From a virus: a DNA stretch of 64,000 nt. The translations under genes and the position numbers were made by a program. Below the pieces are notes generated by a model, which was not told the DNA's origin, made no database searches, and was given only the letters and a program-made list of their open reading frames with translations. The stretch covers positions 32,001 to 96,000 of the IMG/VR virus record IMGVR_UViG_3300020438_004021. The stretch is one strand, 5' to 3'. Below are positions 1,038-50,260 of the stretch, piece by piece (position 1 is the first letter of the stretch; the number at the start of each line of letters is the position of its first letter).

Positions 1038-2097
1038 CAAAAAATTCATTAATATCATATCTTCAGAGTTGAACAAATTCAAGTGGAAGAAAGACAATCT
1101 CGCCATTTGTAGATGTCCAATTTGTGGAGATTCCAAGAAGAACCCCAATAAATGCAGGGGTTACTTCTATCAGAAACACGGCAGGTACTTCTACAAGTGT
1201 CATAACTGTGGCTATTGGTCGAATATATATAATTTTCTTAAGGAGGTCTCTCCTAGTCTATGCAAGGAGTACTCCTTAGAGAATTTCAAGAATGGTATGA
1301 GCAATACCAAACGAAACAATAGCAAGAAGAATGACAAAAGTAGAGAGGAAAGTATGCTGAACATTAATTTTGGTAGGACTCCCAAAAGACCGAGAGATGG
1401 ATATAAAATCCTCGAAGGGTTGGAATGCCTCAAAGACTTGCCGGAAGAACACGAGGCAGCAAAATTCGCTAACCTCAGGATAATACCTAAGCAACATTGG
1501 AACCTTCTGTATTATACGGAAGACTTCGGTTCTTTGATGAGGAAGTTGGACCCTACTTGCCTTCCTGTGGGCAAAGAGTCGAGATTGGTGATACCGTTCT
1601 TCAACAAGAAGGGAGATGTGGTTGCTGTTCAGGGAAGAGCATTGAATATGAATGCCGAACACAATGCTAGGTCTACTGTTAAGTACATAACCGTTAAGGT
1701 GGATAAAAGCATAGACAGGTTGTGGTATGGTCTATGGAGATGTGACCCCAAGAAGACAGTGTATGTGGTCGAGGGACCGATCGACAGTCTCTTCATTCCT
1801 AACTCCATCGCCATGGTGGGGGCAGGAGCAATCAATAATATGCCTAGCAGATTGGTTGACAGCAATATGGTGTTTGCCCTAGATAATGAACCCAGAAATA
1901 AGCAGATAGTGCAATACAATGAAGAACTGGTCAGACAAGGCAAGAAAGTCTGCGTATGGCCTAAGGGTATAGAAGAAAAAGATATTAATGACATGTCCTA
2001 TAGTATTTCTACCAAGAAAATTAAGAAAATTATGGACGAGAATTCTTTCAGTGGACTTGAAGCAACCGCTAGGTTGAGGGAGTGGAAAAAAGTATGA
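1021..2097 (+). CDS. gp61: T4 gp61-like DNA primase
   Basis: Zn finger CPICGDS...YKCHNC, RLVIPFF, TOPRIM VVEGPIDSLF and DNEPRN. Confidence 0.95.
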   Translation: MSVLTDKKFINIISSELNKFKWKKDNLAICRCPICGDSKKNPNKCRGYFYQKHGRYFYKCHNCGYWSNIYNFLKEVSPSLCKEYSLENFKNGMSNTKRNNSKKNDKSREESMLNINFGRTPKRPRDGYKILEGLECLKDLPEEHEAAKFANLRIIPKQHWNLLYYTEDFGSLMRKLDPTCLPVGKESRLVIPFFNKKGDVVAVQGRALNMNAEHNARSTVKYITVKVDKSIDRLWYGLWRCDPKKTVYVVEGPIDSLFIPNSIAMVGAGAINNMPSRLVDSNMVFALDNEPRNKQIVQYNEELVRQGKKVCVWPKGIEEKDINDMSYSISTKKIKKIMDENSFSGLEATARLREWKKV

Positions 2098-3179
2098 GTT
2101 ATAATTGCAAACTAGAATATCTTTGGTTAGATGGTTACAAGACCTCCAATTTGAGAAGCAAGACAAAATATGTCAACCTTCCTGCTGAGTCTGGAGTACT
2201 AAGTATAGATGACATCCCAGAGTGGGGATTTGATGGTTCCAGTACTGAGCAGGCAGACGGGGATAACAGCGATTGCATCCTGAGACCCGTTTCCCTCTTT
2301 AATAATACTGTAGACGCTATTGCGGGTACTAACTCCTATATTGTGATGTGTGAGGTGTTCAACACTGATGGTACACCCCACAAGTCCAATACAAGAGCAC
2401 TTCTCCGTTCCTACATTGAAGATGGAGAGGACAAAGAAATTACTGATGGGATGTGGTTCGGCATAGAACAAGAGTACACCATCATGGACCCTAAGAGCGG
2501 AAGACCTCTCGGATGGCCCGAATCAAGATTTGAATACCCTGCTCCTCAAGGTAGATATTATTGTGGGGTGGGTGGTGATGTTGTCAAGATGAGACAATTG
2601 GTACATGAACATGCCATGTGTTGCATTACCGCAGGAATCCCACTATGTGGTACTAACGCAGAAGTCATGTTGGGTCAATGGGAATATCAAGTAGGACCAC
2701 AGTCTGCACTTAAGATATGTGACTCCCTTTGGGTAGCAAGATACATGCTTGAAGTCCTAGCAGAAACGCAGGATGTTTACATTAGTTTGGACCCCAAGTT
2801 GATCACTGGTGATTGGAACGGTTCAGGTGCTCATATTAACTTTTCCACATCTTATATGAGAGATCAGGGTGGTGAAGAGTACATAGAGAACATTTGCAAG
2901 TCACTAGGTGAGAAGCACGATTGGCACATTGCTAATTACGGAGATGGAAACGAAGACAGATTGACTGGTTCCCATGAAACACAGCACATAAGCAAGTTCT
3001 CATATGGAGACTCTGACAGAAGTGCTAGTATTAGAGTGCCTTCTTCTACGGCATCCAATAAGAAAGGGTATCTTGAAGACAGAAGACCTGCCTCTAACAT
3101 GGATCCCTATAGAGCGGTTAGATGTCTGGTAAGTACCATAAGTGTGGTAGATGCAGAACACCAGTGGCAGACTGTTTGA
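2094..3179 (+). CDS. glnA: Glutamine synthetase (GSII-type)
   Basis: EYLWLDG, WGFDGSST, FGIEQEY, NAEVMLGQWEYQVG, WNGSGAHINFS, RLTGSHET, YLEDRRPASNMDPY. Confidence 0.95.
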   Translation: MSYNCKLEYLWLDGYKTSNLRSKTKYVNLPAESGVLSIDDIPEWGFDGSSTEQADGDNSDCILRPVSLFNNTVDAIAGTNSYIVMCEVFNTDGTPHKSNTRALLRSYIEDGEDKEITDGMWFGIEQEYTIMDPKSGRPLGWPESRFEYPAPQGRYYCGVGGDVVKMRQLVHEHAMCCITAGIPLCGTNAEVMLGQWEYQVGPQSALKICDSLWVARYMLEVLAETQDVYISLDPKLITGDWNGSGAHINFSTSYMRDQGGEEYIENICKSLGEKHDWHIANYGDGNEDRLTGSHETQHISKFSYGDSDRSASIRVPSSTASNKKGYLEDRRPASNMDPYRAVRCLVSTISVVDAEHQWQTV

Positions 3180-3943
3180 TGAATAAAGAAGACGTTCTAG
3201 ATAATGGTTCAGTGCAATATGTAGACCATATGGGGTCTGACTTAACGATAGTTAATTCTGCACGTGTCTCATTCGATAGCGAGTCTGACTGGGTGGTTGA
3301 TGAGGAGGTAGAAAGTAGACTCAAGAGAACTAATTCTACCTTCAGACCCTCAGACATTTACAAATTATCAGACAGAGATGCTAAACTGATTAAATACCTT
3401 GCTAGACACAATCACTGGACTCCTTTTGCCCATCCTCAAATCACTCTTAGGATTAAAGCACCGGTGAGCATAAGGACTCAATTTTTCAAACATAAACAAG
3501 GATTCGTTGAAAACGAGATATCCAGACGATACGTGGATTTCGAACCAGAGTTCTACATCCCCAAGTTCAGGAAAAGACCTGAGAAGGGAATGAAGCAGGG
3601 GAGTGATGGTTGGTTGGAATGCGTAGACGGTGGTGGTGAGACCTCAGGTGGATTTGCTACCCACCATCTTTATGAGAAATATGAGGGTCTGATGAGGAAT
3701 GCATTGAATGTTTATGATGAATTAATCGCTTCTAATGTAGCACCAGAACAGGCAAGATTCGCACTTCCCCAGTCAATGTATACTGAATGGTATTGGACTG
3801 GTTCACTAGCAGCCTATGCTAGGTTCTATAAGCAAAGAATTGACGACCACGCACAGTGGGAAATACAACAATACGCCGAGAAAATTGGTAATATTATCAG
3901 ACCTCTCTTCCCAAATTCTTGGTCAGAGATTGCGTCCAGTTGA
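3179..3943 (+). CDS. thyX: Flavin-dependent thymidylate synthase
   Basis: IVNSARVSF, HWTPFAH, NEISRRY, APEQARFALPQ, HAQWEIQ. Confidence 0.93.
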   Translation: MNKEDVLDNGSVQYVDHMGSDLTIVNSARVSFDSESDWVVDEEVESRLKRTNSTFRPSDIYKLSDRDAKLIKYLARHNHWTPFAHPQITLRIKAPVSIRTQFFKHKQGFVENEISRRYVDFEPEFYIPKFRKRPEKGMKQGSDGWLECVDGGGETSGGFATHHLYEKYEGLMRNALNVYDELIASNVAPEQARFALPQSMYTEWYWTGSLAAYARFYKQRIDDHAQWEIQQYAEKIGNIIRPLFPNSWSEIASS

Positions 3944-5937: not shown

Positions 5938-5941
5938 ATTT

Positions 5942-5949
5942 TATAAATA
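5942..5949 (+). promoter_or_regulatory. T4-type late promoter TATAAATA
   Basis: Exact gp55 consensus in the intergenic gap upstream of the small ORF and porin. Confidence 0.6.
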
Positions 5950-6051
5950 TTCGCTTACGGGTTAATTTTACCCTAGGGGACACGTTGTCCCCACCATTTT
6001 TAAATGGGGACTGGAGTTGGTCCCTATTGCTCAAACACAAGGAGAAATCTT

Positions 6052-6249
6052 ATGAGCACCAAGTCTAAAGAGTCTTGCCCCGCGATGGGATGCAGCGACG
6101 CAGTTACTCGTACCTTAGGTAAGGTCGGAGTTTGTCGTAGCATGCTAATCACATTAGCACTACTTCCATACTCATGGAACGGTGTAGTATGGATTGCTGA
6201 TGCACTTCATTCACTTTGGAATGCTGCCACTAACGCAGTTGGAACCTGA
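6052..6249 (+). CDS. Small membrane-associated hypothetical protein
   Basis: AAGGAG SD before ATG 6052; Cys-containing N-terminus and hydrophobic C-terminal half. Confidence 0.65.
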   Translation: MSTKSKESCPAMGCSDAVTRTLGKVGVCRSMLITLALLPYSWNGVVWIADALHSLWNAATNAVGT

Positions 6250-6279
6250 ATCGCTTAAGCGATTCAAGGAGATAATCCT

Positions 6280-7449
6280 ATGAATATTTCAAAGAAAAAA
6301 TGGATGATGTACGGTGGTATTGCCGCTGCTATTCTAATCGCTTCGGTCGCGGTTGCTGATGGACCTTCATATGAAGACCTTCAGGCCCGTCTAGACGCAG
6401 CAGAGGCAAAGATCGCACAAATTGATTCCGACCGTGCTCCAAGCTGGTTGGAAAGCAGACGTAGTGAAGAAGTTCAATCGCTAGTGCAAGATGTCCTTGC
6501 CGATGCAGAAGCACGAACGATGATGCAGGGAGACAATTCCCCAATCACCGTCAATCTTCATGGATTTGCCATTACTCGTTGGGATTATAACAACGGTGGT
6601 GGTGTGGCAAGAAATAATGAATTCAGCATTCCATATGCTCGACTTGAAGTCTCAGGAGATATCCTAGACAAGGTTGGGTACTATGTCAGTGGTGAATATA
6701 GTGATTACACGAATGGCAGCATGGATCTTGTCGATGCCTACCTCACAATGGATGTGGGTCTGGGAGTAGACATGAAGGCTGGTCAGTTCGTGACTGCATT
6801 CTACCGAGGTTTCACTGATTCACCATTGGATCAGATCGCGGGAGAGTACAGCATTCTTGCTACCACTTTTGGTCAAGGACGATCGCAGGGTCTTCAATTC
6901 GCCAAGGATTTTGGTTGGTTGAATCTCTCTGCCTCTTATAACGACGGTTTCGATACCAGCAATTCCTTCATTGTGGACAACGACTACGGTGTCAGTGTTC
7001 GTGGTGACGTGGATTTTGGTGCTGGATTCCGTGCAGGTGCAGCATACGCCTATCAGTCAGAACTTGAAGATTACGGTACTTACACCGTGGACTTCGGGTA
7101 TTCTACCGATAAGCTAGATGCACAGGTCTCATGGGTTTCTGCCGACTATGCTGTCGGTGGGTACGGTGACAATTATGGTTTTAATGCCAGTGTTGCCTAT
7201 CGTTGTGCCGCCGACTTTACTGGTTTCGTTAATTATCAATGGGGCAAACTAGGGTTTGCTTCTGAAGATCTTAACGTGCTGGAAATCGGTGCTAACTACG
7301 ATATCAACGAATACGTTCGTTGGACCACCACCTTGGGTTATGCATTTGATGCCGTAGCCCCAGAGTGGAATACCGCTCGTTCTGGATGGAACAGCGGTTC
7401 GGAGAATGGTCAGTATCTACTGCGTACACAGCTTAGTGTAAGCTTCTGA
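6280..7449 (+). CDS. Outer-membrane beta-barrel porin (OprO/P-like) with N-terminal coiled coil
   Basis: Signal peptide, coiled coil LQARLDAAEAKIAQ, alternating beta-strand pattern, VDAY...KAGQF, C-terminal Phe (QLSVSF). Confidence 0.8.
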   Translation: MNISKKKWMMYGGIAAAILIASVAVADGPSYEDLQARLDAAEAKIAQIDSDRAPSWLESRRSEEVQSLVQDVLADAEARTMMQGDNSPITVNLHGFAITRWDYNNGGGVARNNEFSIPYARLEVSGDILDKVGYYVSGEYSDYTNGSMDLVDAYLTMDVGLGVDMKAGQFVTAFYRGFTDSPLDQIAGEYSILATTFGQGRSQGLQFAKDFGWLNLSASYNDGFDTSNSFIVDNDYGVSVRGDVDFGAGFRAGAAYAYQSELEDYGTYTVDFGYSTDKLDAQVSWVSADYAVGGYGDNYGFNASVAYRCAADFTGFVNYQWGKLGFASEDLNVLEIGANYDINEYVRWTTTLGYAFDAVAPEWNTARSGWNSGSENGQYLLRTQLSVSF

Positions 7450-7483
7450 TCTGTACGAGGGTCCCGCCCCTCGACACTTCACA

Positions 7484-7520
7484 GGAAAGGCCCTACCCTT
7501 CGGGGTGGGGTCTTTCTTTA
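7484..7520 (+). terminator. Intrinsic terminator with cUUCGg loop
   Basis: GGAAAGGCCCTACCC-TTCG-GGGTGGGGTCTTTCT followed by T-rich tract after the porin. Confidence 0.8.
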
Positions 7521-7636
7521 TATACCCCCTTCCTGATATCAGAAAGGCATATACCACCCCTTGTATATCCCTCCAGAAACCATATACAACCGGTTGTATA
7601 TGACTAAAATATGTCAGGAGAATATCGGGAAGGTAC
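7521..7636. repeat. Palindromic operator-like array (motifs A-B-B-half A)
   Basis: CCTTCCTGATATCAGAAAGG, CATATACCACCCCTTGTATAT, perfect palindrome CATATACAACCGGTTGTATATG, ATATCGGGAAGG; same motifs at 40657-40781, 47470-47523 and 18146-18167. Confidence 0.75.
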
Positions 7637-7665
7637 TTGACAGAAGAACTCCGGTATGATCTAAT
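7637..7665 (+). promoter_or_regulatory. Sigma70-type early promoter
   Basis: TTGACA-17 nt-TCTAAT with extended -10 TG; near-identical copy at 40819. Confidence 0.85.
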
Positions 7666-7671
7666 GGGAGT

Positions 7672-9993
7672 ATGGAAAAAACCTTGAACCGTACAAACCG
7701 TGACTCTAAAGATATCCTCGCTCGCCTACTGGCAGCCGAGAATATCGATGTCGAGCACCAACCAGTACCCACTGCGTACTTCGATACAGTCAGCCGTCGA
7801 CTGGTCCTTCCTCTCTGGGAGAACATGTCGAATGACCTGTATGACATGCTCGTGGGTCACGAAGTTGGACACGCACTATTCACCCCAACTGGCAATGACA
7901 AGACCAAGGCCGCAATCAAGCACATCGATGCTGATGCACCTGAAGGTCGAATCATGAATTACCTGAACGTCGCCGAAGATGTCCGCATCGAGAAGGCAAT
8001 CAAGGACAAGTTCCCTGGTCTCCGTCGCAATTTCACCAAGGCATACAAAGACCTTGCTGAACGTGACTTCTTCGGTATCGCAGGTAAAGACCACAACGAC
8101 ATGTCGTTCATCGACCGAGTGAATATCTACTTCAAAATCGGCATGCACGTCGATGTTACCTTTTCTCCTGAAGAGCAGGTAATCGTTGACATGGTTGATG
8201 CTGCTTATGACTGGGATTCGATGGTCGAAGCTGCAAAAGCGATGTATGGTCTTGCCAAGGAGCAGAAGAAGCAAGAGCAAGAGACCAAGATGGCAATGCC
8301 CGATGGGGATGGTGAATTCCAAGCACCTGCTGATGGTGAAGGCGATGCCGAAGGTCAATCAATGGGCATGGGTTCTGATGATGACAATCAGGACGAAGGC
8401 GAGCAGGAAGGTGCTTCTATGGGTGGTGATGACGAGCAGGGCGACGACTCTGCTGATTCCACCAGTGGTGGTGGTGAAGATTCTGGCGAATCAATGGAAG
8501 ACGATACCGATGATGGTGAGTCTGCTGATAGTCAGTCATCCACCAATGCAGATTCTGCCCAGAGCGGTGGAACTCAGCACGCCGACCAGATGATTGACGA
8601 GTCCGAGCTTCCTGATGACTGTGAAACGCAGAAGTCGATGAATCAGCAGTTGCAAGACAACTGCACGAACGCCGACCAGTACGACCAGAAGCGTCGTTCA
8701 TATGTCACCATGCCTAAGTCAAATACGGATAAGGTCATCGTTCCCGTCACACAGGTGATGGATGATTTTCGTCAGTATATTGTAACCTGCAATAGAGAAG
8801 ACACGAAGAACGGTGCTTATGGTGTCTTCACCAATTTCCAGAAGGAAATGTCAAAGACCGTAAATAAGATGGCACAGCAGTTTGAGATGAAGAAGTCTGC
8901 CGACCAGTACAAGCGTCGCAGCATCTCCGACTCTGGTATCATCGATACCATCAAGATGATTAACTACCGTTGGTCTGATGATATCTTCCTCAAGAACACG
9001 ACCATTCCTGGTGCCAAGAGCCATGGTCTGGTCATGTTCATTGACTGGAGCGGTTCCATGGCAGACCGAATGGCAGACACCATGAAGCAGCTGATGACTC
9101 TCGTCCTCTTCTGCAAGAAGGTCAATATCCCTTACGATGTTTATGCCTTCACTGGTTCATACAAGGAAGACGAAGTCGACGCAGGCAAGAACTACAAGGT
9201 GGGCGATGCTCAACTCGGTCAGTTCCGTCTTCTCAATCTCGTTTCCTCTTCGATGAAGAATCGTGACTGGACCGAGATGATGACCTATGTGACCATGCTT
9301 GCTAACAGTTTCGTGCATACGTACTACAGCACCTCCTCTGGTCGCTCCGAGTCCAGAGACACCATCCTAGACCCACAATACGGAGTGCGTCCTCGTGGTT
9401 ACAGCCTGGGTATGACTCCTCTCGATGACTGCATTGTCGCTGCTTCTGAAATCGTGAAGACTTTCAAGCAGAACCACAAGCTGCAGATTGTGAACGCAGT
9501 CTTCATGACTGATGGTCATACTTCGATGTCCCCACTCGGTGATGGTTGGAGAGGCAGCATCGTGTGGACCGGTGATAAGTTTGAGCAGGAACGTGATGTA
9601 AAAACAGTCTTGAAGGGTCGCAACGGCAAGATTTACAATGACCACAAGAGCACGACCGACAATCTGCTCGAATGGTTTACCGACAAGACCGGCATTCCTG
9701 CGATTGGTATCTTCCTCTGTGATGCACGTGACCTTTACTACAGCAACTTCGACGACAAGCAGATGGAAGAATTCAAGACCAAGAAATGCCTTGAAGTCGG
9801 TAAGCATGGTGGTTATAGCAACTACTACGTGATTGACACCAAGACCAAGAAGTTCAAGGGTGTTGATGACCTGAATGACAATGCAAGTGCGATTGCAGTT
9901 AGGAACGCATTCGTTCGTGAGTCCAAGATTCGCAAGACTCAACAGCAAATCATGAACAAGTTCGTTGACAAGATTTCGATGGAGACAGTATGA
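7672..9993 (+). CDS. CobT-like protein: HExxH metallopeptidase-like N-terminus, acidic linker, VWA domain
   Basis: TAYFD...RRLVLPLW, GHEVGHALFTP, NVAEDVRIE, MIDAS DWSGSM, TPL, MTDG. Confidence 0.85.
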   Translation: MEKTLNRTNRDSKDILARLLAAENIDVEHQPVPTAYFDTVSRRLVLPLWENMSNDLYDMLVGHEVGHALFTPTGNDKTKAAIKHIDADAPEGRIMNYLNVAEDVRIEKAIKDKFPGLRRNFTKAYKDLAERDFFGIAGKDHNDMSFIDRVNIYFKIGMHVDVTFSPEEQVIVDMVDAAYDWDSMVEAAKAMYGLAKEQKKQEQETKMAMPDGDGEFQAPADGEGDAEGQSMGMGSDDDNQDEGEQEGASMGGDDEQGDDSADSTSGGGEDSGESMEDDTDDGESADSQSSTNADSAQSGGTQHADQMIDESELPDDCETQKSMNQQLQDNCTNADQYDQKRRSYVTMPKSNTDKVIVPVTQVMDDFRQYIVTCNREDTKNGAYGVFTNFQKEMSKTVNKMAQQFEMKKSADQYKRRSISDSGIIDTIKMINYRWSDDIFLKNTTIPGAKSHGLVMFIDWSGSMADRMADTMKQLMTLVLFCKKVNIPYDVYAFTGSYKEDEVDAGKNYKVGDAQLGQFRLLNLVSSSMKNRDWTEMMTYVTMLANSFVHTYYSTSSGRSESRDTILDPQYGVRPRGYSLGMTPLDDCIVAASEIVKTFKQNHKLQIVNAVFMTDGHTSMSPLGDGWRGSIVWTGDKFEQERDVKTVLKGRNGKIYNDHKSTTDNLLEWFTDKTGIPAIGIFLCDARDLYYSNFDDKQMEEFKTKKCLEVGKHGGYSNYYVIDTKTKKFKGVDDLNDNASAIAVRNAFVRESKIRKTQQQIMNKFVDKISMETV

Positions 9994-10484
9994 ACATCTT
10001 CTTTGTACACAAAGACCCCAGAACATCTGCACGGATGCTTTGCGACAAGCACATCTGCAAGATGATTCTGGAGTCTGTGCAAATGCTCTGCACCGCATGG
10101 TCCGAAGAGGAAGCACCAAAGACTTGTGGTGCTAGCCATGTGAATCATCCTTGCTCACGTTGGGCGAGGGAGACATCAGGCAACTACAACTGGTTGTCTG
10201 AACACGTGCTAGAGTTGAGCAAGGAGTACACCAAGAGGTATGGCAAGGTACATGCATGGCAAGGTGCGGTAGACTGGTTGAACGAAAACAATCCTTTTAT
10301 CACACACAACAAACCTTGCAGACCGATGACCACGAAACCACAGTGTATGCCCGCCTATTGCAAAGTTGACGGTGACTCCATTCAGGCATACCGCAACTAT
10401 TACATTAACGAAAAATCGTACATGGCAAAGTGGAAGAACAGCACCACACCCAAATGGTACGAACAAGCCTTGGAGACAGTTTGA
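9990..10484 (+). CDS. Pyrimidine-dimer DNA glycosylase-like protein
   Basis: MNIFFV...CDKHICKMILESVQMLCTA...NHPCSRWAR...YTKRYGKVH...AYRNYY. Confidence 0.85.
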   Translation: MNIFFVHKDPRTSARMLCDKHICKMILESVQMLCTAWSEEEAPKTCGASHVNHPCSRWARETSGNYNWLSEHVLELSKEYTKRYGKVHAWQGAVDWLNENNPFITHNKPCRPMTTKPQCMPAYCKVDGDSIQAYRNYYINEKSYMAKWKNSTTPKWYEQALETV

Positions 10485-10951
10485 TGAACAATTACAAAGT
10501 CATAGTTTTTTCCATAATGACTTGGTTTGCCTCAGCCTCCGCCGCTCACGCGGTGGGGGCAGGCGACTCCGAACAAGACCTTCGTAGACTGCTAGACGCA
10601 ATCTGCGAAGTAGAGTCCGGTTGTGACCCCTCAGCTATTGGTGATGGTGGAAATGCTATTGGACCCTACCAGATTTGGAAGAGCTATTGGATTGATGCCT
10701 GTAATTACAGCAAAAGTGATGACCTCAGTCTTGACGATGGTTATAAGAGTTGTATAGATAAGGAATACGCAGAGAAGGTAGTGATAACCTACTGGAAGCG
10801 TTATGCTAACGAGAGACGGCTTAAACGAGTACCTACCCTAGAAGACAGAGCACGCATGCATAATGGTGGACCTCGTGCGGTCTGGGCAAAGGGCAAGAAG
10901 AAGCGAAATCTCGATATCTATTGGAACAAAGTCAAGGAGGCAATGAAATGA
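10484..10951 (+). CDS. Lysozyme-like (destabilase/transglycosylase-like) protein with N-terminal hydrophobic signal
   Basis: AICEVES, AIGDGGNAIGPYQIWKSYWIDA, ARMHNGGP. Confidence 0.75.
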   Translation: MNNYKVIVFSIMTWFASASAAHAVGAGDSEQDLRRLLDAICEVESGCDPSAIGDGGNAIGPYQIWKSYWIDACNYSKSDDLSLDDGYKSCIDKEYAEKVVITYWKRYANERRLKRVPTLEDRARMHNGGPRAVWAKGKKKRNLDIYWNKVKEAMK

Positions 10952-11175
10952 GCGAAAAATACGACCCATTGTATAATCCTAATCCCAAGTGGATGAAGGA
11001 AGCAAAATCTGCCGGTAAGGGAGATAGAATGCGACCAGTTAACATGGACAAGTACCGTGATAACTACGATGCCATCTTTGCCAAGAAGAATGAAGAAAAG
11101 AAGGATGAAGGCAAAGAAGATGACAGCAAGAAGAAGAAGCACGTCGTTAAGCGGCAGAAAGGTAAGAAGAAATGA
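10948..11175 (+). CDS. Small basic hypothetical protein
   Basis: GGAGG SD; GKGDRMRPVNMDKYRDNYDAIF, Lys-rich tail. Confidence 0.65.
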   Translation: MSEKYDPLYNPNPKWMKEAKSAGKGDRMRPVNMDKYRDNYDAIFAKKNEEKKDEGKEDDSKKKKHVVKRQKGKKK

Positions 11176-11830: not shown

Positions 11831-11904
11831 GCTCCTGTAGCTCAGTTGGATAGAGCAGCGGACTTCTAATCCGCAGGTCACACGTTCGAGTCGTGTCGGG
11901 AGTG
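11831..11904 (+). tRNA. tRNA-Arg(TCT)
   Basis: Cloverleaf GCTCCTG/CGGGAGT, anticodon arm GCGGA-CTTCTAA-TCCGC, T-loop TTCGAGT; CCA not encoded. Confidence 0.95.
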
Positions 11905-11910
11905 CTTATT

Positions 11911-12891
11911 ATGATGAAAAGACACCAGATTAAAATCGGCAATTCGCTTAGTGTCCTGAAGGAAATGGATGATAAAAGTGTGGACTGTGTTGTAACCTCC
12001 CCACCTTATTGGGGATTGCGTGATTATGGTGGTCAAGAAGAACAACTGGGTGCTGAAGGCACACCGCAAGAATTCGTTGACAATATGGTATCCATCTTTA
12101 GTCAAGTACATAGAGTCCTTAAGGACGAAGGGACTGTCTGGTTGAACCTTGGCGACAGTTATTATAACTACAGACCTGGTGCAGGTCAGACACTAATCAA
12201 GCAGACAATCGCTAACAGCGACCAAGACCTTCCCCAAGAGTGTGCTAGGAGAGGGAACAAGATTAAGGGTCTCAAAGAGAAGAGTCTAGTTGGGATTCCT
12301 TGGAGGGTAGCACTTGCTTTGCAGGAAGATGGATGGATTCTGAGACAGGATATCATCTGGCACAAACCCAATCCGATGCCCGAATCCGTAAAAGACAGAT
12401 GTACCAAGGCACACGAATATATCTTTCTCCTAACCAAGAATAAGAAGTATTACTACGACAATGAAGCAATCCTAGAGCCGATCTCTGAGATATCAATAAA
12501 GAGAGCGGAGTATGGTTGGGATTGCGACAGACCTTCAACCAAGAATGCATCAATGGGAGGCGAGGGTATCCACGTCGAAAAGATGGGGACCAGATTCGTT
12601 AATCCCAAGGGCAAGAACAAACGGTCTGTCTGGACGGTAAACACAGCGAGTTATAAAGATGCTCATTTTGCGGTTTACCCCACCAAACTGATTGAACCTT
12701 GCATCTTAGCAGGATGCCCTGAAGGTGGAACCGTTCTGGACCCATTCTCGGGAAGCGGAACAACGGGTATCGTTGCCCTTAACAACGGACGAAAATACAC
12801 CGGAATCGAGTTGAATCCTGAATACGCAGAACTATCGGAAAAGAGAATAGCAGAAGAATGTCCCAACAACCTAACGGAGCTTATGCAATGA
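11911..12891 (+). CDS. Beta-class N4-cytosine/N6-adenine DNA methyltransferase
   Basis: Motif IV TSPPYW N-terminal, motif I VLDPFSGSGTT C-terminal, HFAVYP. Confidence 0.9.
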   Translation: MMKRHQIKIGNSLSVLKEMDDKSVDCVVTSPPYWGLRDYGGQEEQLGAEGTPQEFVDNMVSIFSQVHRVLKDEGTVWLNLGDSYYNYRPGAGQTLIKQTIANSDQDLPQECARRGNKIKGLKEKSLVGIPWRVALALQEDGWILRQDIIWHKPNPMPESVKDRCTKAHEYIFLLTKNKKYYYDNEAILEPISEISIKRAEYGWDCDRPSTKNASMGGEGIHVEKMGTRFVNPKGKNKRSVWTVNTASYKDAHFAVYPTKLIEPCILAGCPEGGTVLDPFSGSGTTGIVALNNGRKYTGIELNPEYAELSEKRIAEECPNNLTELMQ

Positions 12892-13973
12892 GAACAGCAA
12901 TCACATTTGATGACGTTTTAATCGTCCCACAATACAGCGAAGTGACACCAGACATGGTGTCGACCAAGACCACCTTGGTGAAAGGAATCGAACTGGACAT
13001 CCCAATTATGTCCGCACCGATGGATTCGGTGACAGAGGTCGAAATGGCAACAGCGATGGCTGAAGAAGGTGGTATAGGCATCCTACACAAGAATATGGGT
13101 CATGATGAGCAGATACGTCAGGCCTATGAGATTAAGAAGTGGGGTCATAAGTTGGGTGTTGCTCTTAGCCCAACCAAGTACACCGATAGGATGGTTGAGG
13201 AACTGGTTGATGCCGGTATCGACGTGTTCGTCCTTGACAGTGCACATGGTCATTCTAAGAACGTGATGGATGCAACTGAGCGACTTAAGAAGCTCACCGA
13301 TATCCCTGTCATTGTAGGAAACATCGCAACCGCAGAAGCCGCTATAGAACTCTACAATGCTGGTGCTGATGCCCTAAAGGTGGGTATCGGTCCTGGTTCC
13401 ATTTGTACGACGAGAATCGTAGCGGGTGTGGGTGTCCCCCAAATCACCGCTATTCAGGATGTTGCCAGTGCCAATGGAGGCAAACTCGACATCCCCATCA
13501 TTGCAGACGGTGGTATCCGGTACAGTGGTGATATCGCTAAAGCTATCATGGCAGGTGCGAGTTGCGTGATGCTAGGTTCCCTCCTTGCAGGACATGATGA
13601 AGTCCCCAACTACCAAGGTGTCATCATTGACGGCAAGCGGTATGTCCCTTACCGTGGGATGGGAAGCGAAGGAGCGATGGGTGACGGTTCTGGAGACAGG
13701 TACAGTCAAGACGGCTCAGATAAGTTCGTCCCTGAGGGCATCGAGGGTTGCGTCCCTTATAAGGGTGCAGTTGCAGACACTATCTACCAGATGGTCGGCG
13801 GTCTAAAGTCAGCAATGGGTTATGTCGGTGCTGCAACGATTGAAGACCTGATTAAGCAGGGCGAAAGTTATTATCACATGGAAGGGTTCGTAGGGGTAAG
13901 TCCTAACTCCCTGCGAGAGAACCACCCACACGATGTCCATATCACCAAGGAAGCACCCAACTATGCGATTTGA
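12888..13973 (+). CDS. guaB: IMP dehydrogenase (CBS-less; GuaB/GuaC family)
   Basis: [62 protein letters not shown]. Confidence 0.9.
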
Positions 13974-14967
13974 TAAGATGCCAAAAGCGGAGCTGCACCT
14001 TCATATCGAAGGCACTCTCGAACCCGAGTTGATGTTCGAACTGGCAGACAGGAACGGGATGAAGATTCCCTACAAGACAGTCGAAGAAGTACGAAGTGCT
14101 TATGAATTCGACAGTCTTCAGTCATTTCTAGACATCTACTATGAAGGTGCTAAGGTCCTGAGGACTGAGCAAGACTTCTACGATTTGACTTGGGCATACC
14201 TGATGAAGTGCAAAGAGCAAAGAATCGTGCATACTGAAATCTTTTTTGACCCCCAAACGCACACCCACAGGGGCGTGGATTTTGGGACAGTTATTAACGG
14301 AATCAGCAACGCACTTCTAGACGCAGAAGCAGAATTCGGAATCACTTCTCTCATATTCATGTGCTTTTTGCGACACCTAACCGAGACATCTGCCTTCGAA
14401 ACCCTAGAGATGGCAATGCCTTATCAAAACAAGATTTATGGTGTTGGTCTCGACTCTTCAGAGGTTGGCAATCCGCCCTCTCGATTTAAAAAGGTGTTCG
14501 CAGAAGCGGCTGAACGTGGATTTGAGGTGGTATGCCATGCAGGAGAAGAAGGACCACCTGAGTACATTTGGGAGGCATTAGAACTAGGTGCTTCTAGAAT
14601 CGACCACGGTGTCCGTTGCCTTGAATCCTCCACCATAACAAACGAGCTGGTAGATAGGCAAATTCCTCTTACGGTCTGCCCTCTTTCTAACGTCAAACTC
14701 AAGGTCTTTGACACCCTCAAGGGTCATAATCTCAAGAAGATGATGGACAGAGGTCTTTTCGTTACGATTAACTCAGATGACCCAGCCTATTTTGGTGGTT
14801 ATCTCAACGAGAACTATGAGCAGTGCATGAAGGAGCTTAATCTGAGCGAGAACGATATGACCGTCCTCCTCAGCAATTCTTTCTTAGCATCTTATCTTTC
14901 CCCACTAGAGAAGGGACGATACATTGAGAAGATTGAAAAATGCATGCACATAGAGAAGGCGGTGTAG
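13963..14967 (+). CDS. add: Adenine/adenosine deaminase
   Basis: PKAELHLHIEGTLEP, EIFFDPQTH, HAGEEG, RIDHGVR, CPLSN, NSDDPAYFGGY. Confidence 0.92.
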   Translation: MRFDKMPKAELHLHIEGTLEPELMFELADRNGMKIPYKTVEEVRSAYEFDSLQSFLDIYYEGAKVLRTEQDFYDLTWAYLMKCKEQRIVHTEIFFDPQTHTHRGVDFGTVINGISNALLDAEAEFGITSLIFMCFLRHLTETSAFETLEMAMPYQNKIYGVGLDSSEVGNPPSRFKKVFAEAAERGFEVVCHAGEEGPPEYIWEALELGASRIDHGVRCLESSTITNELVDRQIPLTVCPLSNVKLKVFDTLKGHNLKKMMDRGLFVTINSDDPAYFGGYLNENYEQCMKELNLSENDMTVLLSNSFLASYLSPLEKGRYIEKIEKCMHIEKAV

Positions 14968-14968
14968 T

Positions 14969-15352
14969 GTGTCCATCTCGGTTGAGAACAGACTTCTGAA
15001 GTATGCAAGAATAGCACTCCCGATATCTTCTGAAGTGCCTCGTTCAAAGAAGCATGTGAGTCTCATAACCACCAGAAAAGGAACCATACTGGCACACGGA
15101 ACGAACCAATTCCGCACACACCCTCTGGCAAAGCAGTATGGTTATCGATATGACGAAGTGCATTCTGAACTGGATGCCCTTTTGAGGCTACCAAAGGGAG
15201 CAGATAGGAACGACCTCGTTCTTCTCAACTTCCGATTCAACAGATTTGGAGACATGAGGATTAGCAAGCCGTGCTGTCTTTGTCTCCCTTGGTGTCGGGC
15301 AGTGTTCAGTGACATCTTTTACAGCACGGACGAAGGAATTATTAAATTATGA
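14969..15352 (+). CDS. Zinc-dependent cytidine-deaminase-superfamily protein
   Basis: HSE and PCCLC (HxE...PCxxC) zinc motifs. Confidence 0.8.
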   Translation: MSISVENRLLKYARIALPISSEVPRSKKHVSLITTRKGTILAHGTNQFRTHPLAKQYGYRYDEVHSELDALLRLPKGADRNDLVLLNFRFNRFGDMRISKPCCLCLPWCRAVFSDIFYSTDEGIIKL

Positions 15353-15519: not shown

Positions 15520-15878
15520 AAATCGACATTTGGACGGATTCGGGACTCCCTAGTCACCTTGAGGCGATAATAGACACAACCATCAAGTGGTGCGTCAGAT
15601 ATTTTGACTTGAAGAACAAAAAGAAGCTATCCTTCACCGTTAAAGTCAACTCAAGGAAGAACTGCTGGGGTTATTGCCTCCAAGGTGACGAAGACCACTC
15701 TTATGAGATTTACGTCGCGGACAACCAGACAATTAGAGACTTCCTAGCCACGTTGACTCACGAGATGGTGCACGTCAAGCAATGGGAAACCGGCTGTTGG
15801 GTTGGAGAAGGAGAAAAAGAAGCAGAGAAGCTCCAATACCTGCTTGCTGATGAGATTTGGAAACAAGGACTGATTTAA
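15516..15878 (+). CDS. Small HExxH metallopeptidase-like protein
   Basis: TLTHEMVHVKQ...EKEA. Confidence 0.7.
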   Translation: MKIDIWTDSGLPSHLEAIIDTTIKWCVRYFDLKNKKKLSFTVKVNSRKNCWGYCLQGDEDHSYEIYVADNQTIRDFLATLTHEMVHVKQWETGCWVGEGEKEAEKLQYLLADEIWKQGLI

Positions 15879-15893
15879 TAAAAAAAATGATAG

Positions 15894-15966
15894 GCGAGTG
15901 TAGCCCAACGGCAGAGGCAGTGGACTTAAAATCCATACAGTGTGGGTTCGAATCCCACCACTCGTA
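15894..15966 (+). tRNA. tRNA-Leu(TAA) with short variable loop
   Basis: GCGAGTG/CACTCGT acceptor, GTGGA-CTTAAAA-TCCAT anticodon arm, GTGGG-TTCGAAT-CCCAC. Confidence 0.9.
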
Positions 15967-15985
15967 TTCTCATGAGGAAAAAGAA

Positions 15986-16885
15986 ATGAATTTATCTAAC
16001 TGTTTATTGTCTGTAGTAGTAACGTCTGCGTCTGTATTGGCAAATGGGACCGTTAAAATAGACGGATCTTCCACTGCATACCCCATCACTGAGGCAGTTG
16101 CAGAAGAGTATGCTGAGGTAGCACCCAAGGTTAGGGTGACAGTGGGTGTGTCTGGTACTGGTGGTGGTTTTAAAAGGCTTATTGCTAATGAGACTGATAT
16201 TTCCAATGCTTCTCGTCCTATTAAAGAAAAAGAAAGAGAAGCATGCAAAGAAGCAGGGATCGAGTTCCTAGAACTGCCCGTGGCATATGATGGTCTAACC
16301 ATTGTTGTTAATAAAAAGAACACATGGGTAGACAGTCTAACAATGCACGAATTGAATGCTATCTTCGAAGGTGGTCTAAAGAAATGGTCAGATGTTAGAC
16401 CAGAATGGCCCGACAGCGATATTAATATCTTCTCTCCAGGCACCGACTCTGGTACTTTTGACTACTTTAAGGAGGTAGTCATCGGCAAGACTGGATCAAT
16501 GAGATCAGACATGTCTGTTAGCGAGGACGACAACGTATTGGTCAAAGGTGTTGCTGGGAGCACTAATGCTCTTGGATTCTTTGGTTGTGCTTATTACTAT
16601 GAAAATGCTGACAAGTTGAAGGTTGTCCCCATTGTAAATCCTAAGAATGGCAAGAAAGTCATCCCTTCAAGAAAGAATATCGAGTCTGGTGCTTATTACC
16701 CTTTCAGTAGGCCTTTGTTCATATACGTCAACAAGGCATCTATGAGGAAGCAGTCAGTCAGATCATTCGTAATATTTTATCTAGATAAGTGTCCCAAGCT
16801 ATCTGTTGAAGTGGGTTATGTGCAACTACCTCCCGAAAAGATGAAAGAGGTTAAGGCGAAGGTCAGAAAAAAGGATAAAAAATGA
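15986..16885 (+). CDS. pstS: Phosphate ABC transporter substrate-binding protein
   Basis: IDGSSTAYP, SGTGGGFK, DISNASR, DSGTFDYF, SEDDN, YPFSRPLFIY. Confidence 0.93.
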   Translation: MNLSNCLLSVVVTSASVLANGTVKIDGSSTAYPITEAVAEEYAEVAPKVRVTVGVSGTGGGFKRLIANETDISNASRPIKEKEREACKEAGIEFLELPVAYDGLTIVVNKKNTWVDSLTMHELNAIFEGGLKKWSDVRPEWPDSDINIFSPGTDSGTFDYFKEVVIGKTGSMRSDMSVSEDDNVLVKGVAGSTNALGFFGCAYYYENADKLKVVPIVNPKNGKKVIPSRKNIESGAYYPFSRPLFIYVNKASMRKQSVRSFVIFYLDKCPKLSVEVGYVQLPPEKMKEVKAKVRKKDKK

Positions 16886-17328: not shown

Positions 17329-17850
17329 ATGGACATGTACAATTTATCTTTCCCTCGTGACTTTGGTATCGGATTTGATGATGTATTCACTAGGATGCAT
17401 CGTCTAATGTCATCTGAGGAAAATAACAACAACGTTACAAAATTTCCACCATACAACATCATCAACGAATCTGATACCGAAAGTATCGTTGAGATGGCTG
17501 TTGCCGGGTTCTCATCTGATGAACTCGACATTACGGTAGAAAATAATGTGCTCAAAATTGTCGGTAAGAGAGATGTTAAGCTGGATGATGCAAAGTACCA
17601 GCATAAGGGCATCGCATACCGCAATTTTGAGCGTAATTTTGCTTTAAGTGATTATATTGAGGTCAATGGAGCCAGTTGTGCCGAGGGAATTCTTAGAGTC
17701 TACCTAGAAAAGGTAGTCCCAGAGGATATGAAGCCCCGTAAGATTAACATTGTTAATGATAGACAACTACTGGTAGAGGACCAAAAACATCAGAACGTGC
17801 CCTATGATAATCAGGGTTCAATTGATGTTCCTTACGACCCCAGTAAATAA
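17329..17850 (+). CDS. hsp20: Small heat shock protein (Hsp20/IbpA-like)
   Basis: FPPYNII, EMAVAGF, HKGIAYRNFERNF, GILRVYL...PRKINI; TATAAATA at 17253 upstream. Confidence 0.93.
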   Translation: MDMYNLSFPRDFGIGFDDVFTRMHRLMSSEENNNNVTKFPPYNIINESDTESIVEMAVAGFSSDELDITVENNVLKIVGKRDVKLDDAKYQHKGIAYRNFERNFALSDYIEVNGASCAEGILRVYLEKVVPEDMKPRKINIVNDRQLLVEDQKHQNVPYDNQGSIDVPYDPSK

Positions 17851-38953: not shown

Positions 38954-39712
38954 CTATCTAACCATTCTTTCAATTTTGCGTTCACTGTCAATTTCCTCTC
39001 TAATCCAATTATAGACGACATCCACTCTTATAGCGGAGTTTTCATATATCATATCTCTATACATGCTGAAGGTCGAGATTATTCCTACCACTACGAACCT
39101 GTTATCGATTAGCATGAATACCGGACCACCAGAATCACCAAACCATACAGAACCTCCCATCGGAAGCATCTTCATTCCAGTGGGTTCGCTCTCTAGAGTT
39201 CCATAATAGAATAGTGTATTCAACTCGCTTCTCTTTTTAAATCCTCTAGAGTATCCAACTGATATCACCGGTGTGCCTTTTCTGACATCTAATAGTGGTT
39301 TAGAATTGATTCCAGATGGGAATATTCCACGAACGTAGGTATCTAGAACGATGACTGCCACATCATATCCCACCTTCATGTCAGCATTGTACTGCGGATG
39401 TTTGGTAGCACATTTGATGCTATACATTTCGTCACCAAATTGTACATAGGACTCGTCATTGGAAATGCAATGAGCAGCCGTAAGCACTATATCTTGCTCG
39501 ATAAGGACTACCGAGCATTTGGGTCTCATGTCTCCAGATAGAAGTCTGCCTACCGATGGATAGTCATCTTCCGTTATGGTTATAAAACCTTCTATACTCG
39601 GAACTATTTCTTTTTTAGGGGGTGGACTCTCTGCACTGGGTTTCACCGTTTTGGCAGCGCATCCCGTAAAGCATAATAAAAGGGCTGATAGATAAACTAT
39701 CTTTCTTAACAT
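38954..39712 (-). CDS. Trypsin-like serine protease, lipoprotein signal
   Basis: FTGC lipobox; LTAAHC, DVAV, GDSGGP triad; minus-strand TATAAATA at 39721-39728. Confidence 0.88.
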   Translation of the reverse strand: MLRKIVYLSALLLCFTGCAAKTVKPSAESPPPKKEIVPSIEGFITITEDDYPSVGRLLSGDMRPKCSVVLIEQDIVLTAAHCISNDESYVQFGDEMYSIKCATKHPQYNADMKVGYDVAVIVLDTYVRGIFPSGINSKPLLDVRKGTPVISVGYSRGFKKRSELNTLFYYGTLESEPTGMKMLPMGGSVWFGDSGGPVFMLIDNRFVVVGIISTFSMYRDMIYENSAIRVDVVYNWIREEIDSERKIERMVR

Positions 39713-39719
39713 GTCCTCT

Positions 39720-40619: not shown

Positions 40620-40656
40620 CATCTTGAGTATTTATTCTGGATGCCCAAAAGGTACA

Positions 40657-48635: not shown

Positions 48636-49709
48636 ATGATTGAGTCTGGTAAGGTGAATTTTCTTATTGATGGACAGTGGGGAAGCACTGGCAAGGGCAA
48701 ACTTGCCGGTTACATGTATAGCAGATTTAAGAATCTGAACATGGCAATCAGTGATAATATGCCAAATGCGGGGCATACCTTTACACGCGATGGTAAGAAC
48801 TTCATCTTTAAGGCCCTTCCTACCGGAGTTTTGTTCGATGAAGTGACATCTTTAATCGGTCCACAGGCAGTGATGGGTGAAGAGCAGTTCCAATATGAAA
48901 TGGAGATGGTGAAGAACGAAATAGGTCACTATCCCAAGGTAATCATCCACCCAATGGCAACCGTTGTAACCGCCAGTGACAAAGATGCTGAAGCAGGAAT
49001 CGTCAGCAAAATGGCAAGTACGGGTCAGGGTTCTTGTTCCGCTACCGTTAAGAAGATGTGGAGACGAGGAGAGGCAAACCTCGCCAAGAACAGCAAGGTG
49101 TTTGATGAATTCGTCGGTGATACCCATTCCTTCCTTCATGAAGGACTTAAGAAGGGTGGTGCTGCACTTTCGGAAGGTAGTCAAGGTTTTGACCTTTCAA
49201 TGAATTGCGGACATGCCTACCCACACACGACGTCACGCGATTGCTTGATCGGGAGAATGATGGACAATGCAGGATGCCCAGTCAAGTCTGTAGGTAGCAT
49301 AATCGCTTGTCTAAGGACACTGCCAATTCGCGTTGGAAGCACTGAGAACACGAGCGGTCCTTACTACGACGACCAGAATGAAATCGACTGGAAGACGGTA
49401 TCCGATATGTGTGGTCATGATGTAGAAGAAAGAACTACAGTGACCCAGAGAGTTCGTAGAGTATTTACATTCTCGGAAGAACAGACTAGGAAGTTCTGCG
49501 AATTTGTTCGTCCGGATTATGCATTCCTTAACTTCGTTAACTACTATAAGGAAGAGGGAGACCGACTCAATGCTGTCTCTGAAGTAGCGACAATTCTGGG
49601 TGAGTACGGTTGCGACCTTACACTACTAGGTACTGGTGCTGGACTAGACGATATGGAAATGACCAGCAACGAGCAAATCCTAGGCAAGCAGGAAACACTT
49701 TTTGCATGA
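48636..49709 (+). CDS. purZ: PurZ-type 2-amino-deoxyadenylosuccinate synthetase (PurA family)
   Basis: GQWGSTGKG (Ser replaces PurA Asp), NAGHT, EGSQGFDLS, YPHTTSRDC, RTLPIRV, SGPYYDDQNEIDW, ERTTVTQRVRRVFTFS, FLNFVNY; 357 aa. Confidence 0.82.
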   Translation: MIESGKVNFLIDGQWGSTGKGKLAGYMYSRFKNLNMAISDNMPNAGHTFTRDGKNFIFKALPTGVLFDEVTSLIGPQAVMGEEQFQYEMEMVKNEIGHYPKVIIHPMATVVTASDKDAEAGIVSKMASTGQGSCSATVKKMWRRGEANLAKNSKVFDEFVGDTHSFLHEGLKKGGAALSEGSQGFDLSMNCGHAYPHTTSRDCLIGRMMDNAGCPVKSVGSIIACLRTLPIRVGSTENTSGPYYDDQNEIDWKTVSDMCGHDVEERTTVTQRVRRVFTFSEEQTRKFCEFVRPDYAFLNFVNYYKEEGDRLNAVSEVATILGEYGCDLTLLGTGAGLDDMEMTSNEQILGKQETLFA

Positions 49710-50260
49710 TTCAGCACTGCGTAATAGGACAGGCTGGTAGTGGTAAGTCCACATTCATAGAGAAGAAATTCCCTAGGGACGAACACATCTTCTTTGATAC
49801 GGGTAGCATGCTTAGAAGCATGTTTACCTGTCTCAAGGGGGAACAGACTAGCAAGAACGTTTGGGATTTTGCAAATCCGTTGGTATATAGTGTTTACAAG
49901 CAGTGCTGCACTGTTTCAGAGAACACCGGTTATGAGTTCATAACTGACGGTTTCCCTAGGAACTCATCTCAAGTTAAGAATATGCATATGTTTTTGACTT
50001 CTCTACCCCATAGCAATTCTATCATATTCCATATGCTGGACATTTCAGAAGAAGAGCAGATTAGGAGGATAGAGAAGAGAAATGGAAAGATGAGCGACTA
50101 TCATATTGATAGGATATCACAGTCTAGGAGAGACTTCGAGTCTGTATTGGATGAACTAGACAGGATTATGAGTAGCAGCACTGCGAACAGAACCTTAATA
50201 GAGATAAAGTGGTATAAGCAAGAAGATGGTGATTTCGTTCTGGACAGAAGTTATAAATAG
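49706..50260 (+). CDS. Adenylate-kinase-like NMP kinase
   Basis: GQAGSGKST, DTGSMLR, ITDGFPRNSSQ; ATGA overlap with the purZ stop. Confidence 0.82.
   Translation: MIQHCVIGQAGSGKSTFIEKKFPRDEHIFFDTGSMLRSMFTCLKGEQTSKNVWDFANPLVYSVYKQCCTVSENTGYEFITDGFPRNSSQVKNMHMFLTSLPHSNSIIFHMLDISEEEQIRRIEKRNGKMSDYHIDRISQSRRDFESVLDELDRIMSSSTANRTLIEIKWYKQEDGDFVLDRSYK

Follow-up and report, generated by a model that had tools for sequence, protein, structure and literature searches.

Why would an AT-rich phage carry enzymes predicted to turn adenine into guanine nucleotides? The question is raised by a stretch of 64,000 nucleotides (the window; bases 32001-96000 of the virus record IMGVR_UViG_3300020438_004021, 136,240 bp, genome label G000), in which a gene for inosine monophosphate (IMP) dehydrogenase (IMPDH; guaB) overlaps a gene for adenine deaminase (ade) and is followed closely by an open reading frame (ORF) of 127 amino acids with the motifs of a zinc deaminase. 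The same window encodes PurZ, a key enzyme in phages that replace adenine by 2-aminoadenine (Z) in their DNA. We put at roughly 55% the probability that guaB and ade form a two-gene purine-rerouting cassette in a T4-like lineage that makes, or tries to make, Z-DNA. Judged from the encoded proteins, the phage adenine deaminase and an unregulated IMPDH probably turn host adenine into guanine nucleotides, the precursors of Z. The initial annotation had treated all three ORFs as one block; the ORFs, their overlaps and their motifs were recovered as described on the + strand, and Pfam and NCBIfam searches confirmed an IMPDH and a member of the A_deaminase family (Table 1).

The guaB product matched PF00478 over the entire model (420 bits, positions 1-345 of 345). 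Two stretches of it matched the IMPDH model TIGR01302 (392.9 bits); the score falls short of the equivalog cut-off (481.5), as the protein has no CBS part. Its best solved matches were all IMPDHs. It aligned end to end with the 363-residue IMPDH chain 4q32 (E = 2e-121), and in two pieces with the 494-residue chain 1vrd, of which residues ~121-226 were skipped; a Pfam scan gave no CBS match (PF00571) in the phage protein. The full catalytic barrel, the Cys loop, the Arg-Tyr flap and the C-terminal segment are common to the phage enzyme and bacterial GuaB (4q32, 1vrd), identity to cellular enzymes being 55-61%, whereas the phage enzyme carries a short linker, KKWGHKLG, where the CBS/Bateman pair, which serves regulation and not catalysis, would be. 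The catalytic Cys loop, GSICTTR, aligns to the IMPDH chains and is invariant in the 4 phage copies, and the flap motif DRY is also present (GDRYSQDG aligned to SDRYFQNG of 4q32). In IMPDH the Arg-Tyr dyad of the flap activates water.

GMP reductases belong to the same Pfam family, and those of the GuaC type are likewise short and lack CBS domains, so that the gene might be suspected of encoding a GMP reductase. We regard this as scarcely credible. The IMPDH model gave 393 bits, the GuaB1-type model 201 bits and the classic GuaC-type models 165-184 bits; every best solved match is an IMPDH, and the DRY motif and the C-terminus typical of IMPDH are both in place. The GMP reductases of related phages lack the DRY motif, 5 flap residues and the C-terminal ~45 residues of IMPDH. 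These features point to a protein with the predicted activity of a true IMPDH, as the initial annotation had supposed, and one naturally devoid of the regulatory CBS/Bateman domain.

The short form was frequent among the closest homologues. In a set of 5.8 billion proteins, 9 of the 10 best matches and 18 of the 120 matches listed were CBS-less (351-365 residues, no PF00571), and the remaining 102 had 483-538 residues with CBS. Almost all of the 18 were unnamed metagenomic proteins; one, of 357 residues, was labelled as belonging to a Bacteroidales metagenome-assembled genome, and the other named cellular matches had 484-515 residues with CBS. The matches listed were 53-63% identical to the phage enzyme, with no bacterial group prominent. 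In the cultured-phage collection, nothing matched the CBS-less IMPDH over its full length at more than 40% identity. Cultured-phage matches above 50% identity covered residues ~98-371 only and were mostly unannotated fragments; three were annotated as IMPDH, one of them with a CBS domain, and we read them as bacterial-type genes. The comparison suggests that the missing CBS domain is the mark of a phage or phage-like IMPDH clade, represented mostly by unnamed metagenomic sequences. IMPDH deprived of its Bateman domain remains active but escapes nucleotide control, and the phage enzyme should, by analogy, escape control by adenine and guanine nucleotides.

For the second gene, the product matched PF00962 (A_deaminase, 295 bits) and exceeded the cut-off of NF006850 (525 bits; cut-off 419). 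The closest solved structures were those of Pa0148 from Pseudomonas aeruginosa (3ou8, 3pan and 3pao; E = 6e-119), followed by 3rys (E = 7e-108). Scores reached 400 bits to 3ou8 and 364 bits to 3rys, but at most 124 bits to adenosine deaminases, the true members of which gave E values of only ~1e-30 to 1e-35. The alignment with the adenine deaminases Pa0148 and AAur1117 (3ou8, 3pao, 3rys) extends over the whole barrel, including the metal-binding motifs; unlike these, ade is phage-encoded and translationally overlapped with guaB. The gene, assigned to the add family and read as an adenine deaminase from the outset, is predicted to encode a type-2 adenine deaminase of the Pa0148 kind acting on the free base. 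Pa0148 reportedly uses free adenine and not nucleotides, and enzymes of its type are said to accept N6-methyladenine and 2,6-diaminopurine besides adenine. Among genuine cultured phages ade had no match, the 8 tblastn matches being bacterial-like or metagenomic records, and PHROGs gave nothing for either ade or the 127-residue ORF. A scan of viral contigs with the single Ade protein came back empty, which was a miss of the search pattern, since homologues exist.

A fungal adenine deaminase of the A_deaminase family is reported to deaminate 2,6-diaminopurine at 86.5% relative activity, with guanine as the product, and to leave adenosine and AMP unused (PMC6281700). By analogy, the phage adenine deaminase should also turn free Z base into guanine. 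The initial annotation had held that efficient destruction of diaminopurine by the deaminase would speak against a link to PurZ; this is not a valid argument, because guanine formed from free Z base feeds the same pool. The deaminase might instead serve mainly to clear or salvage modified free bases, 2,6-diaminopurine or N6-methyladenine, with IMPDH in a secondary role, an idea encouraged by the fungal enzyme, for which 2,6-diaminopurine is reported to be almost as good a substrate as adenine (PMC6281700), and by the DNA methyltransferase gene directly upstream of guaB in the window. However, the methyltransferase gene does not adjoin the cassette in relatives, ade is always coupled to guaB, which the conversion of Z base to guanine does not need, and one type of PurZ genome, that of G003, has no ade. 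We therefore judge this explanation improbable and return to the joint action of ade and guaB.

To what extent do the two genes belong together? The guaB-ade pair, always overlapping or abutting, was present in 5 genotypes (the window, L009, L010, L037 and L112) that share only 66-82% DNA identity. Its position differs between G000 and the closest relative, G001, which indicates that guaB-ade moves as a unit. Identity between G000 and G001 amounts to 98% for IMPDH, 66% for ade, 92% for PurZ and 85% for the 127-residue gene. The cassette is thus mosaic and mobile, yet retained. The disparity between IMPDH and ade inside this one cassette (L009 10001-12104 against 12888-14967 of the window) suggests recent recombination within or at the edge of the pair.

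All three contigs of the lineage with a length of at least 126 kb (G000, G001 and G003) encode PurZ, IMPDH, a type II glutamine synthetase (GSII) and adenylosuccinate lyase (PurB), and two of the three also encode ade. Glutamine synthetase had been put forward as a possible companion of the deaminase genes, and its presence beside PurZ and IMPDH in each large genome agrees with this. The purine genes occupy four separate loci in these genomes: PurB; GSII; guaB with or without ade; and PurZ with a kinase. A second type of IMPDH, 57-60% identical to the first, was found in 3 genotypes: G003 (L034, the same as L042), L113 and L114. In L034 and L113 the sequence continues past the gene and IMPDH stands without ade; L114 (1.6 kb) holds too little sequence for a decision. 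When metagenomes were scanned with the IMPDH alignment, most of the genes recovered were bacterial and contained CBS, and no further long phage contig came to light, so that the co-occurrence could not be extended past the three large genomes. The evidence for the association is hence a sequence comparison of three large genomes of one lineage.

PurZ in the window is of the phiVC8 type, the closest solved structure being phiVC8 PurZ (6fm1, E = 7e-55) and the next that of S-2L (7odx). Its P-loop, DGQWGSTGKG, has GSTGKG in place of the GDEGKG of PurA, with Ser for Asp13; PMC12884076 gives this replacement as the criterion for PurZ. Further signature residues, in phiVC8 numbering S14, T262, F295 and Y298, also W252, Y244 and P233, are named in bioRxiv 10.1101/2025.10.22.683976, and all of them are conserved in an alignment read by hand (offset 20), F12 being W. 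The protein scored 211.7 bits on NF038379, below the cut-off of 300, and at most 137 bits on PurA models. The start codon of the next gene, encoding a nucleoside monophosphate (NMP) kinase, overlaps the PurZ stop, and such a kinase directly follows PurZ in 7 of the 7 relatives with downstream sequence; by family and position it is a candidate dZMP/dGMP kinase. All solved matches of PurB are adenylosuccinate lyases (best E = 3.6e-113), and among the 31 related records the gene is in G001 and G003 only. A Lyase_1 gene was also seen in two other large phages with PurZ homologues, G043 and G064. GSII is likewise present in G001 and G003. In G014, which lacks it, the homologues of primase and ThyX abut; GSII is an insertion between these two genes.

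From these genes we infer substrates, flux, deregulation and the presence of Z in the DNA, in the following route. Phage Ade would convert adenine, set free by host nucleic-acid and nucleotide turnover, to hypoxanthine, which host HPRT would turn into IMP. The phage IMPDH, unregulated, would carry IMP to XMP, and host GuaA would carry XMP to GMP with glutamine that could come from the phage GSII. A phage class II ribonucleotide reductase would lead from GMP to deoxyguanine nucleotides; PurZ would then convert dGMP to dSMP, phage PurB dSMP to dZMP, and the PurZ-linked kinase dZMP to dZDP. Free Z base, converted to guanine by the phage deaminase, would join the same pool. A degraded host would give about equal amounts of A and G, and the ribonucleotide pool would be rich in adenine. 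If A were fully replaced, all purines of a genome with 42.7% GC would have to come from guanine nucleotides, so that an A-to-G flux would be needed. The route would explain why an AT-rich phage carries A-to-G genes while its relatives carry the G-to-A enzyme.

The enzyme of those relatives was recognized in nine related records with a paralogue of the IMPDH/GMP reductase family, 37-45% identical to the guaB product, near the 127-residue gene. The one tested, in L028 (2676-3617), is a GMP reductase (NF003470, 487 bits; cut-off 397), and seven further paralogues are 54-100% identical to it. The GMP reductase gene lies 0.6-5.5 kb from the 127-residue gene in L028, L012, L013, L014, L016, L021, L026 and L031. 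No PurZ, IMPDH-type guaB, ade or PurB was found in the nine records, and no GMP reductase in the PurZ genomes of the lineage.

Several observations weigh against a rerouting of purines towards Z. The G003 type lacks ade, which makes ade dispensable. IMPDH was found in 2 of 49 viral records with PurZ homologues, G001 and G003, both of this lineage, and in none of the 38 distant PurZ records (PurZ 30-49% identical), nor in any of 9 records at least 90% complete. The proposed co-occurrence of guaB and ade with purZ is accordingly real inside the lineage (IMPDH in three of three large contigs, ade in two) and absent outside it; with an association confined to one lineage, shared ancestry could explain the link. 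The records with GMP reductase are fragmentary (11-67 kb, no more than 30% complete) and come from distant relatives, with rearranged gene order and ~25-79% protein identity; the absence of PurZ is not proven from such fragments, and their contrast with the PurZ genomes may reflect different hosts. The presence of Z in the DNA is a prediction from gene content, and PurZ scores 212 bits against an NCBIfam cut-off of 300. Replication genes are T4-like, the polymerase being unannotated and no search for DpoZ/PolA having been made. Neither a phosphoribosyltransferase nor a GMP synthase is encoded by the phage, so that the route needs host steps, and no source of free adenine was found, there being no NDT/DmtZ match in the genome. 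According to PMC12884076, the DmtZ enzyme of PurZ0 phages sets adenine free from dAMP, which makes free adenine a plausible metabolite in infections by Z-phages.

The genes for a phosphate-binding protein (PstS), a phosphate porin and GSII also fit a plain response to nutrient limitation. Accordingly, guaB and ade could be generic purine-salvage or nutrient genes unrelated to Z, boosting GTP and recovering nitrogen in a marine host short of nutrients, with GSII fixing the ammonia released from adenine; their co-occurrence with PurZ would then be a matter of descent in a single lineage. The presence of Hsp20 with PstS, phosphate porin and GSII in the same genome agrees with this, as does the lack of IMPDH in all the distant PurZ records; moreover, phages without PurZ also have genes for purine interconversion: the relatives carry GuaC, cultured jumbo phages have genes annotated as GMP reductases, and L180 has a PurA-like gene. 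On the other hand, a phage with normal DNA at 57% A+T needs more A than G, and the relatives indeed carry a G-to-A enzyme. Also, in each of the three large PurZ genomes the purine genes are spread over four loci, one of which, GSII, has been shown to be an insertion. On balance we consider the salvage explanation unlikely, although it is to be taken seriously, and favor rerouting towards Z.

The L180 locus (5182-11023), from an unrelated phage, encodes a short PurA-like protein (GDEGKG, Asp kept), dut and an IMPDH/GMP reductase family protein without DRY; by its gene content this set may be a G-to-A mirror of the purine kit described here.

The initial annotation had gone further and proposed that the three-gene block could replace or supplement DatZ/MazZ by draining A pools and raising dGMP. 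It had also stated that no datZ- or mazZ-like gene is visible in the window, and within the families searched the same is true of all 136,240 bp of the genome: HD, YfbR-like, MazG, DUF550, DUF5664 and NDT gave 0 matches at E <= 1 (Pfam models including PF01966, PF12917, PF03819, PF04447 and PF18909; HD_3, PF13023, not searched; DUF550 without a positive control over the cut-off). In 8 PurZ records of the lineage, HD, MazG and DUF550 likewise had no match, with the same limit for DUF550, and HD was found in 9 of the 49 PurZ records, all distant. The genome searched appears closed: its two ends (nt 1-115 and 136125-136240) match over 116 nt but for a single gap in a run of T, so that the assembly closes on itself, and G000 is probably complete in spite of its collection label (linear, 75% complete).

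The lack of a match to six families in a closed genome is the one finding that favors replacement of DatZ/MazZ by the block, which we hold to be highly improbable. The closest characterized relatives of the deaminase reportedly use free adenine and not nucleotides; an enzyme acting on the free base cannot hydrolyse dATP or keep it out of DNA. The third gene is dCMP-deaminase-like and unlinked to the pair, and dut, whose product passes the NCBIfam cut-off for dUTPase, encodes a more plausible candidate dNTPase. Thus, of the idea that purines are diverted from A to G to feed PurZ, the metabolic core is plausible by its context of PurB, NMP kinase and GSII, and the replacement of DatZ/MazZ is not supported. 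The route leaves the exclusion of dATP from DNA unexplained.

The dut product (197 residues) has an N-terminal extension of ~80 residues or a mis-called start, and a homologue is encoded by a relative in which the search for PurZ gave nothing. In PurZ0 phages, according to PMC12884076, dATP and dGTP are hydrolysed by Dut-like enzymes, and by analogy dut is a better candidate for a dNTPase than the deaminase block, possibly an analogue of DutZ. Another candidate for a hidden dATPase was the 183-residue ORF that follows the kinase gene (50276-50827); it was dropped, its product being acidic, coiled-coil-like and without an enzyme match.

The 127-residue protein carries H65-S-E67 and P101-C-C-L-C105, and direct searches of Pfam, NCBIfam and PHROGs with it gave no match. 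Related genes were found at 23 viral loci, 17 of which were aligned with the window protein (L014, L019, L024, L028, L030 and L033 were omitted). HSE and PCxxC (H65, E67, P101, C102 and C105) are invariant in these 18 sequences and in a larger alignment of 69. The latter came from a profile search of 1.84 billion representatives, which gave 2630 proteins at E <= 1e-3, and holds the window protein and 68 of the 150 matches listed, about every second one. An AlphaFold model (pLDDT 85.5, pTM 0.81) retrieved with Foldseek only proteins of the cytidine-deaminase fold, with a best E of 2e-3 and none at E <= 0.001. With VIA-align, matches of this fold had Z scores of 8.2-10.5, tied across cytidine, blasticidin, guanine, tRNA and RibD deaminases. 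PF00383 matched 46 of the 69 family members (best E = 2.5e-11), and the window protein itself 0 families. Against solved structures the ORF alone reached E = 1.5 and the 18-sequence profile E = 0.085; the 69-sequence profile alone was significant, and its five best matches were dCMP or dCMP/dCTP deaminases, in the order 4p9c (5.7e-8), 2hvv, 1vq2, 2w4l and 7fh4 (7e-4).

The model and the profiles argue for a zinc deaminase with a cytidine-deaminase fold; its best matches make it dCMP-deaminase-like and a candidate dCMP deaminase. The fold, HxE and PCxxC are common to it and the phage dCMP deaminases of cyanophage S-TIM5 (4p9c) and T4 (1vq2), and its size is near that of the S-TIM5 enzyme; it differs in having HSE for HAE and an extra invariant His29, and in evading direct detection by PF00383. 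No other PF00383 match was found in G000. Since there is none and a ThyX thymidylate synthase is present, supply of dUMP would be the most economical role, and the gene most likely feeds ThyX with dUMP. In G001 it lies at 82386-82766 and guaB starts at 84190, 1.4 kb downstream, with a denV-like and a DUF6782-like gene between them. Of the 31 related records 23 have it, and guaB-ade accompanies it in G001 alone; G003, a genome with PurZ and IMPDH, lacks it. It is a core gene of the lineage, unlinked to guaB-ade and only a neighbour of the cassette here, which removes the HxE/PCxxC deaminase from the block in which it had been placed.

How does this gene set relate to known Z-phages? The Asp-to-Ser change in PurZ and the signature residues for ATP and dGMP are common to G000 and to the PurZ/DatZ/MazZ phages (S-2L, phiVC8) and PurZ0/DutZ/DmtZ/DUF5664 phages (Ghobes, Wayne). 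Unlike them, G000 is a T4-like myovirus without a match to DatZ, MazZ, DUF550, DUF5664 or NDT, and its own genes supply PurB, an NMP kinase and, upstream, IMPDH, adenine deaminase and GSII. In bioRxiv 10.1101/2025.10.22.683976, the steps of PurB and the kinase are attributed to host enzymes. Phage GMP reductases, found in the relatives and annotated in XacN1, Cr30 and phage G, are purine interconversion enzymes of the same superfamily that run in the opposite direction, from GMP to IMP, and none of them shares a record with a PurZ found here. Literature searches for PurZ with IMP dehydrogenase or adenine deaminase, and for aminoadenine, phage and guaB, gave unrelated papers only; IMPDH, guaB and deaminase do not occur in the main text of PMC12884076 (NAR 2026) or bioRxiv 10.1101/2025.10.22.683976, the supplements of which may list such domains.

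Work on Z genomes has so far centred on PurZ, DatZ, MazZ, DutZ, DmtZ and DpoZ in siphoviruses and podoviruses, and the steps before dGMP and after PurZ have been credited to the host. The present lineage suggests a supply-side solution in large T4-like phages, with A-to-G rewiring, their own PurB and kinase, and no dATPase of the families searched. As a tentative extension, to which we give less than even odds, a lineage of T4-like marine myoviruses would build Z-DNA without a dNTPase of the DatZ/MazZ type by means of a scattered kit of six genes (ade, Bateman-less IMPDH, GSII, PurZ, PurB and NMP kinase), distant relatives with ordinary DNA and GMP reductase would run the reverse reaction, and the direction of interconversion would track DNA chemistry. 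This gives a testable rule: guaB and ade with PurZ, guaC with normal DNA. If true, it would add to the genes from which Z-DNA can be predicted in metagenomes, and the engineering of Z-DNA production would gain an IMPDH that is unregulated by nature, together with a compact set of genes.

The jumbo phage G064 (395 kb, with terminal repeats; L102 3001-4110, L192 4234-5211) has a Ser-type PurZ (GSTGKG), Lyase_1 and HD genes. Its A_deaminase-family gene adjoins a superoxide dismutase gene and is of a generic type, 27% identical to ade; as independent support for a link between ade and PurZ it would be weak.

The genome has a T4-like myovirus backbone, with homologues of the gp45 clamp, gp44 loader, RNase H, gp46/47, gp5, gp53 and tail-tube cap. 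Within it, the methyltransferase gene, guaB, ade and the 127-residue ORF form a run of four co-directional genes without spacers (11893-15352). A consensus scan found no promoter-like or terminator-like site on the + strand inside this run, overall counts being near those of shuffled sequences. The stop codon TGA of the methyltransferase gene overlaps the guaB start as ATGA, and the Met used as the guaB start is also the start in relatives; in L009 a different gene stands upstream of guaB. The overlap of guaB and ade measures 41 nt, and an alternative ade ATG at 13963 would reduce it to 11 nt.

Table 1. Positions of the genes discussed, in window coordinates unless another record is named.
Feature	Position	Strand	Details
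Source record	136,240 bp; window = bases 32001-96000		IMGVR_UViG_3300020438_004021 (G000)
Type II glutamine synthetase (GlnII-like)	2082..3179	+	NF041605, 411 bits over 3-329/333, cut-off 500
ThyX thymidylate synthase	3122..3943	+	PF02511, 160.6 bits
N6/N4 DNA methyltransferase	11893..12891	+	PF01555, 195.5 bits
guaB (predicted IMP dehydrogenase)	12888..13973	+	ATG at 12888; stop 13971-13973
ade (predicted adenine deaminase)	13933..14967	+	ATG at 13933; stop TAG 14965-14967
127-residue ORF (predicted zinc deaminase)	14969..15352	+	GTG start, one base past the ade stop
PurZ (succino-amino-deoxyadenylate synthase), phiVC8 type	48636..49709	+	
ADK-like NMP kinase	49706..50260	+	PF00406, 32.3 bits, cut-off 26.8; weak matches to adk and UMP-CMP kinase models
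PurB (adenylosuccinate lyase)	G000:C1:2188-3642		~30 kb upstream of window start, between gp47-like and gp46-like genes
dut	G000:C1:26323-26916 (L058 6323-6916)		197 residues; passes NCBIfam dUTPase cut-off

Further auxiliary genes of the kind seen in marine phages lie at 6280-7449 (phosphate-porin-like), 15857-16885 (PstS-like) and 17329-17850 (Hsp20) of the window. Genes for a trypsin-like protease, a pyridoxal phosphate-dependent enzyme and a 2-oxoglutarate-Fe(II) oxygenase were seen at 38954-40622 (- strand) and 44548-45129.

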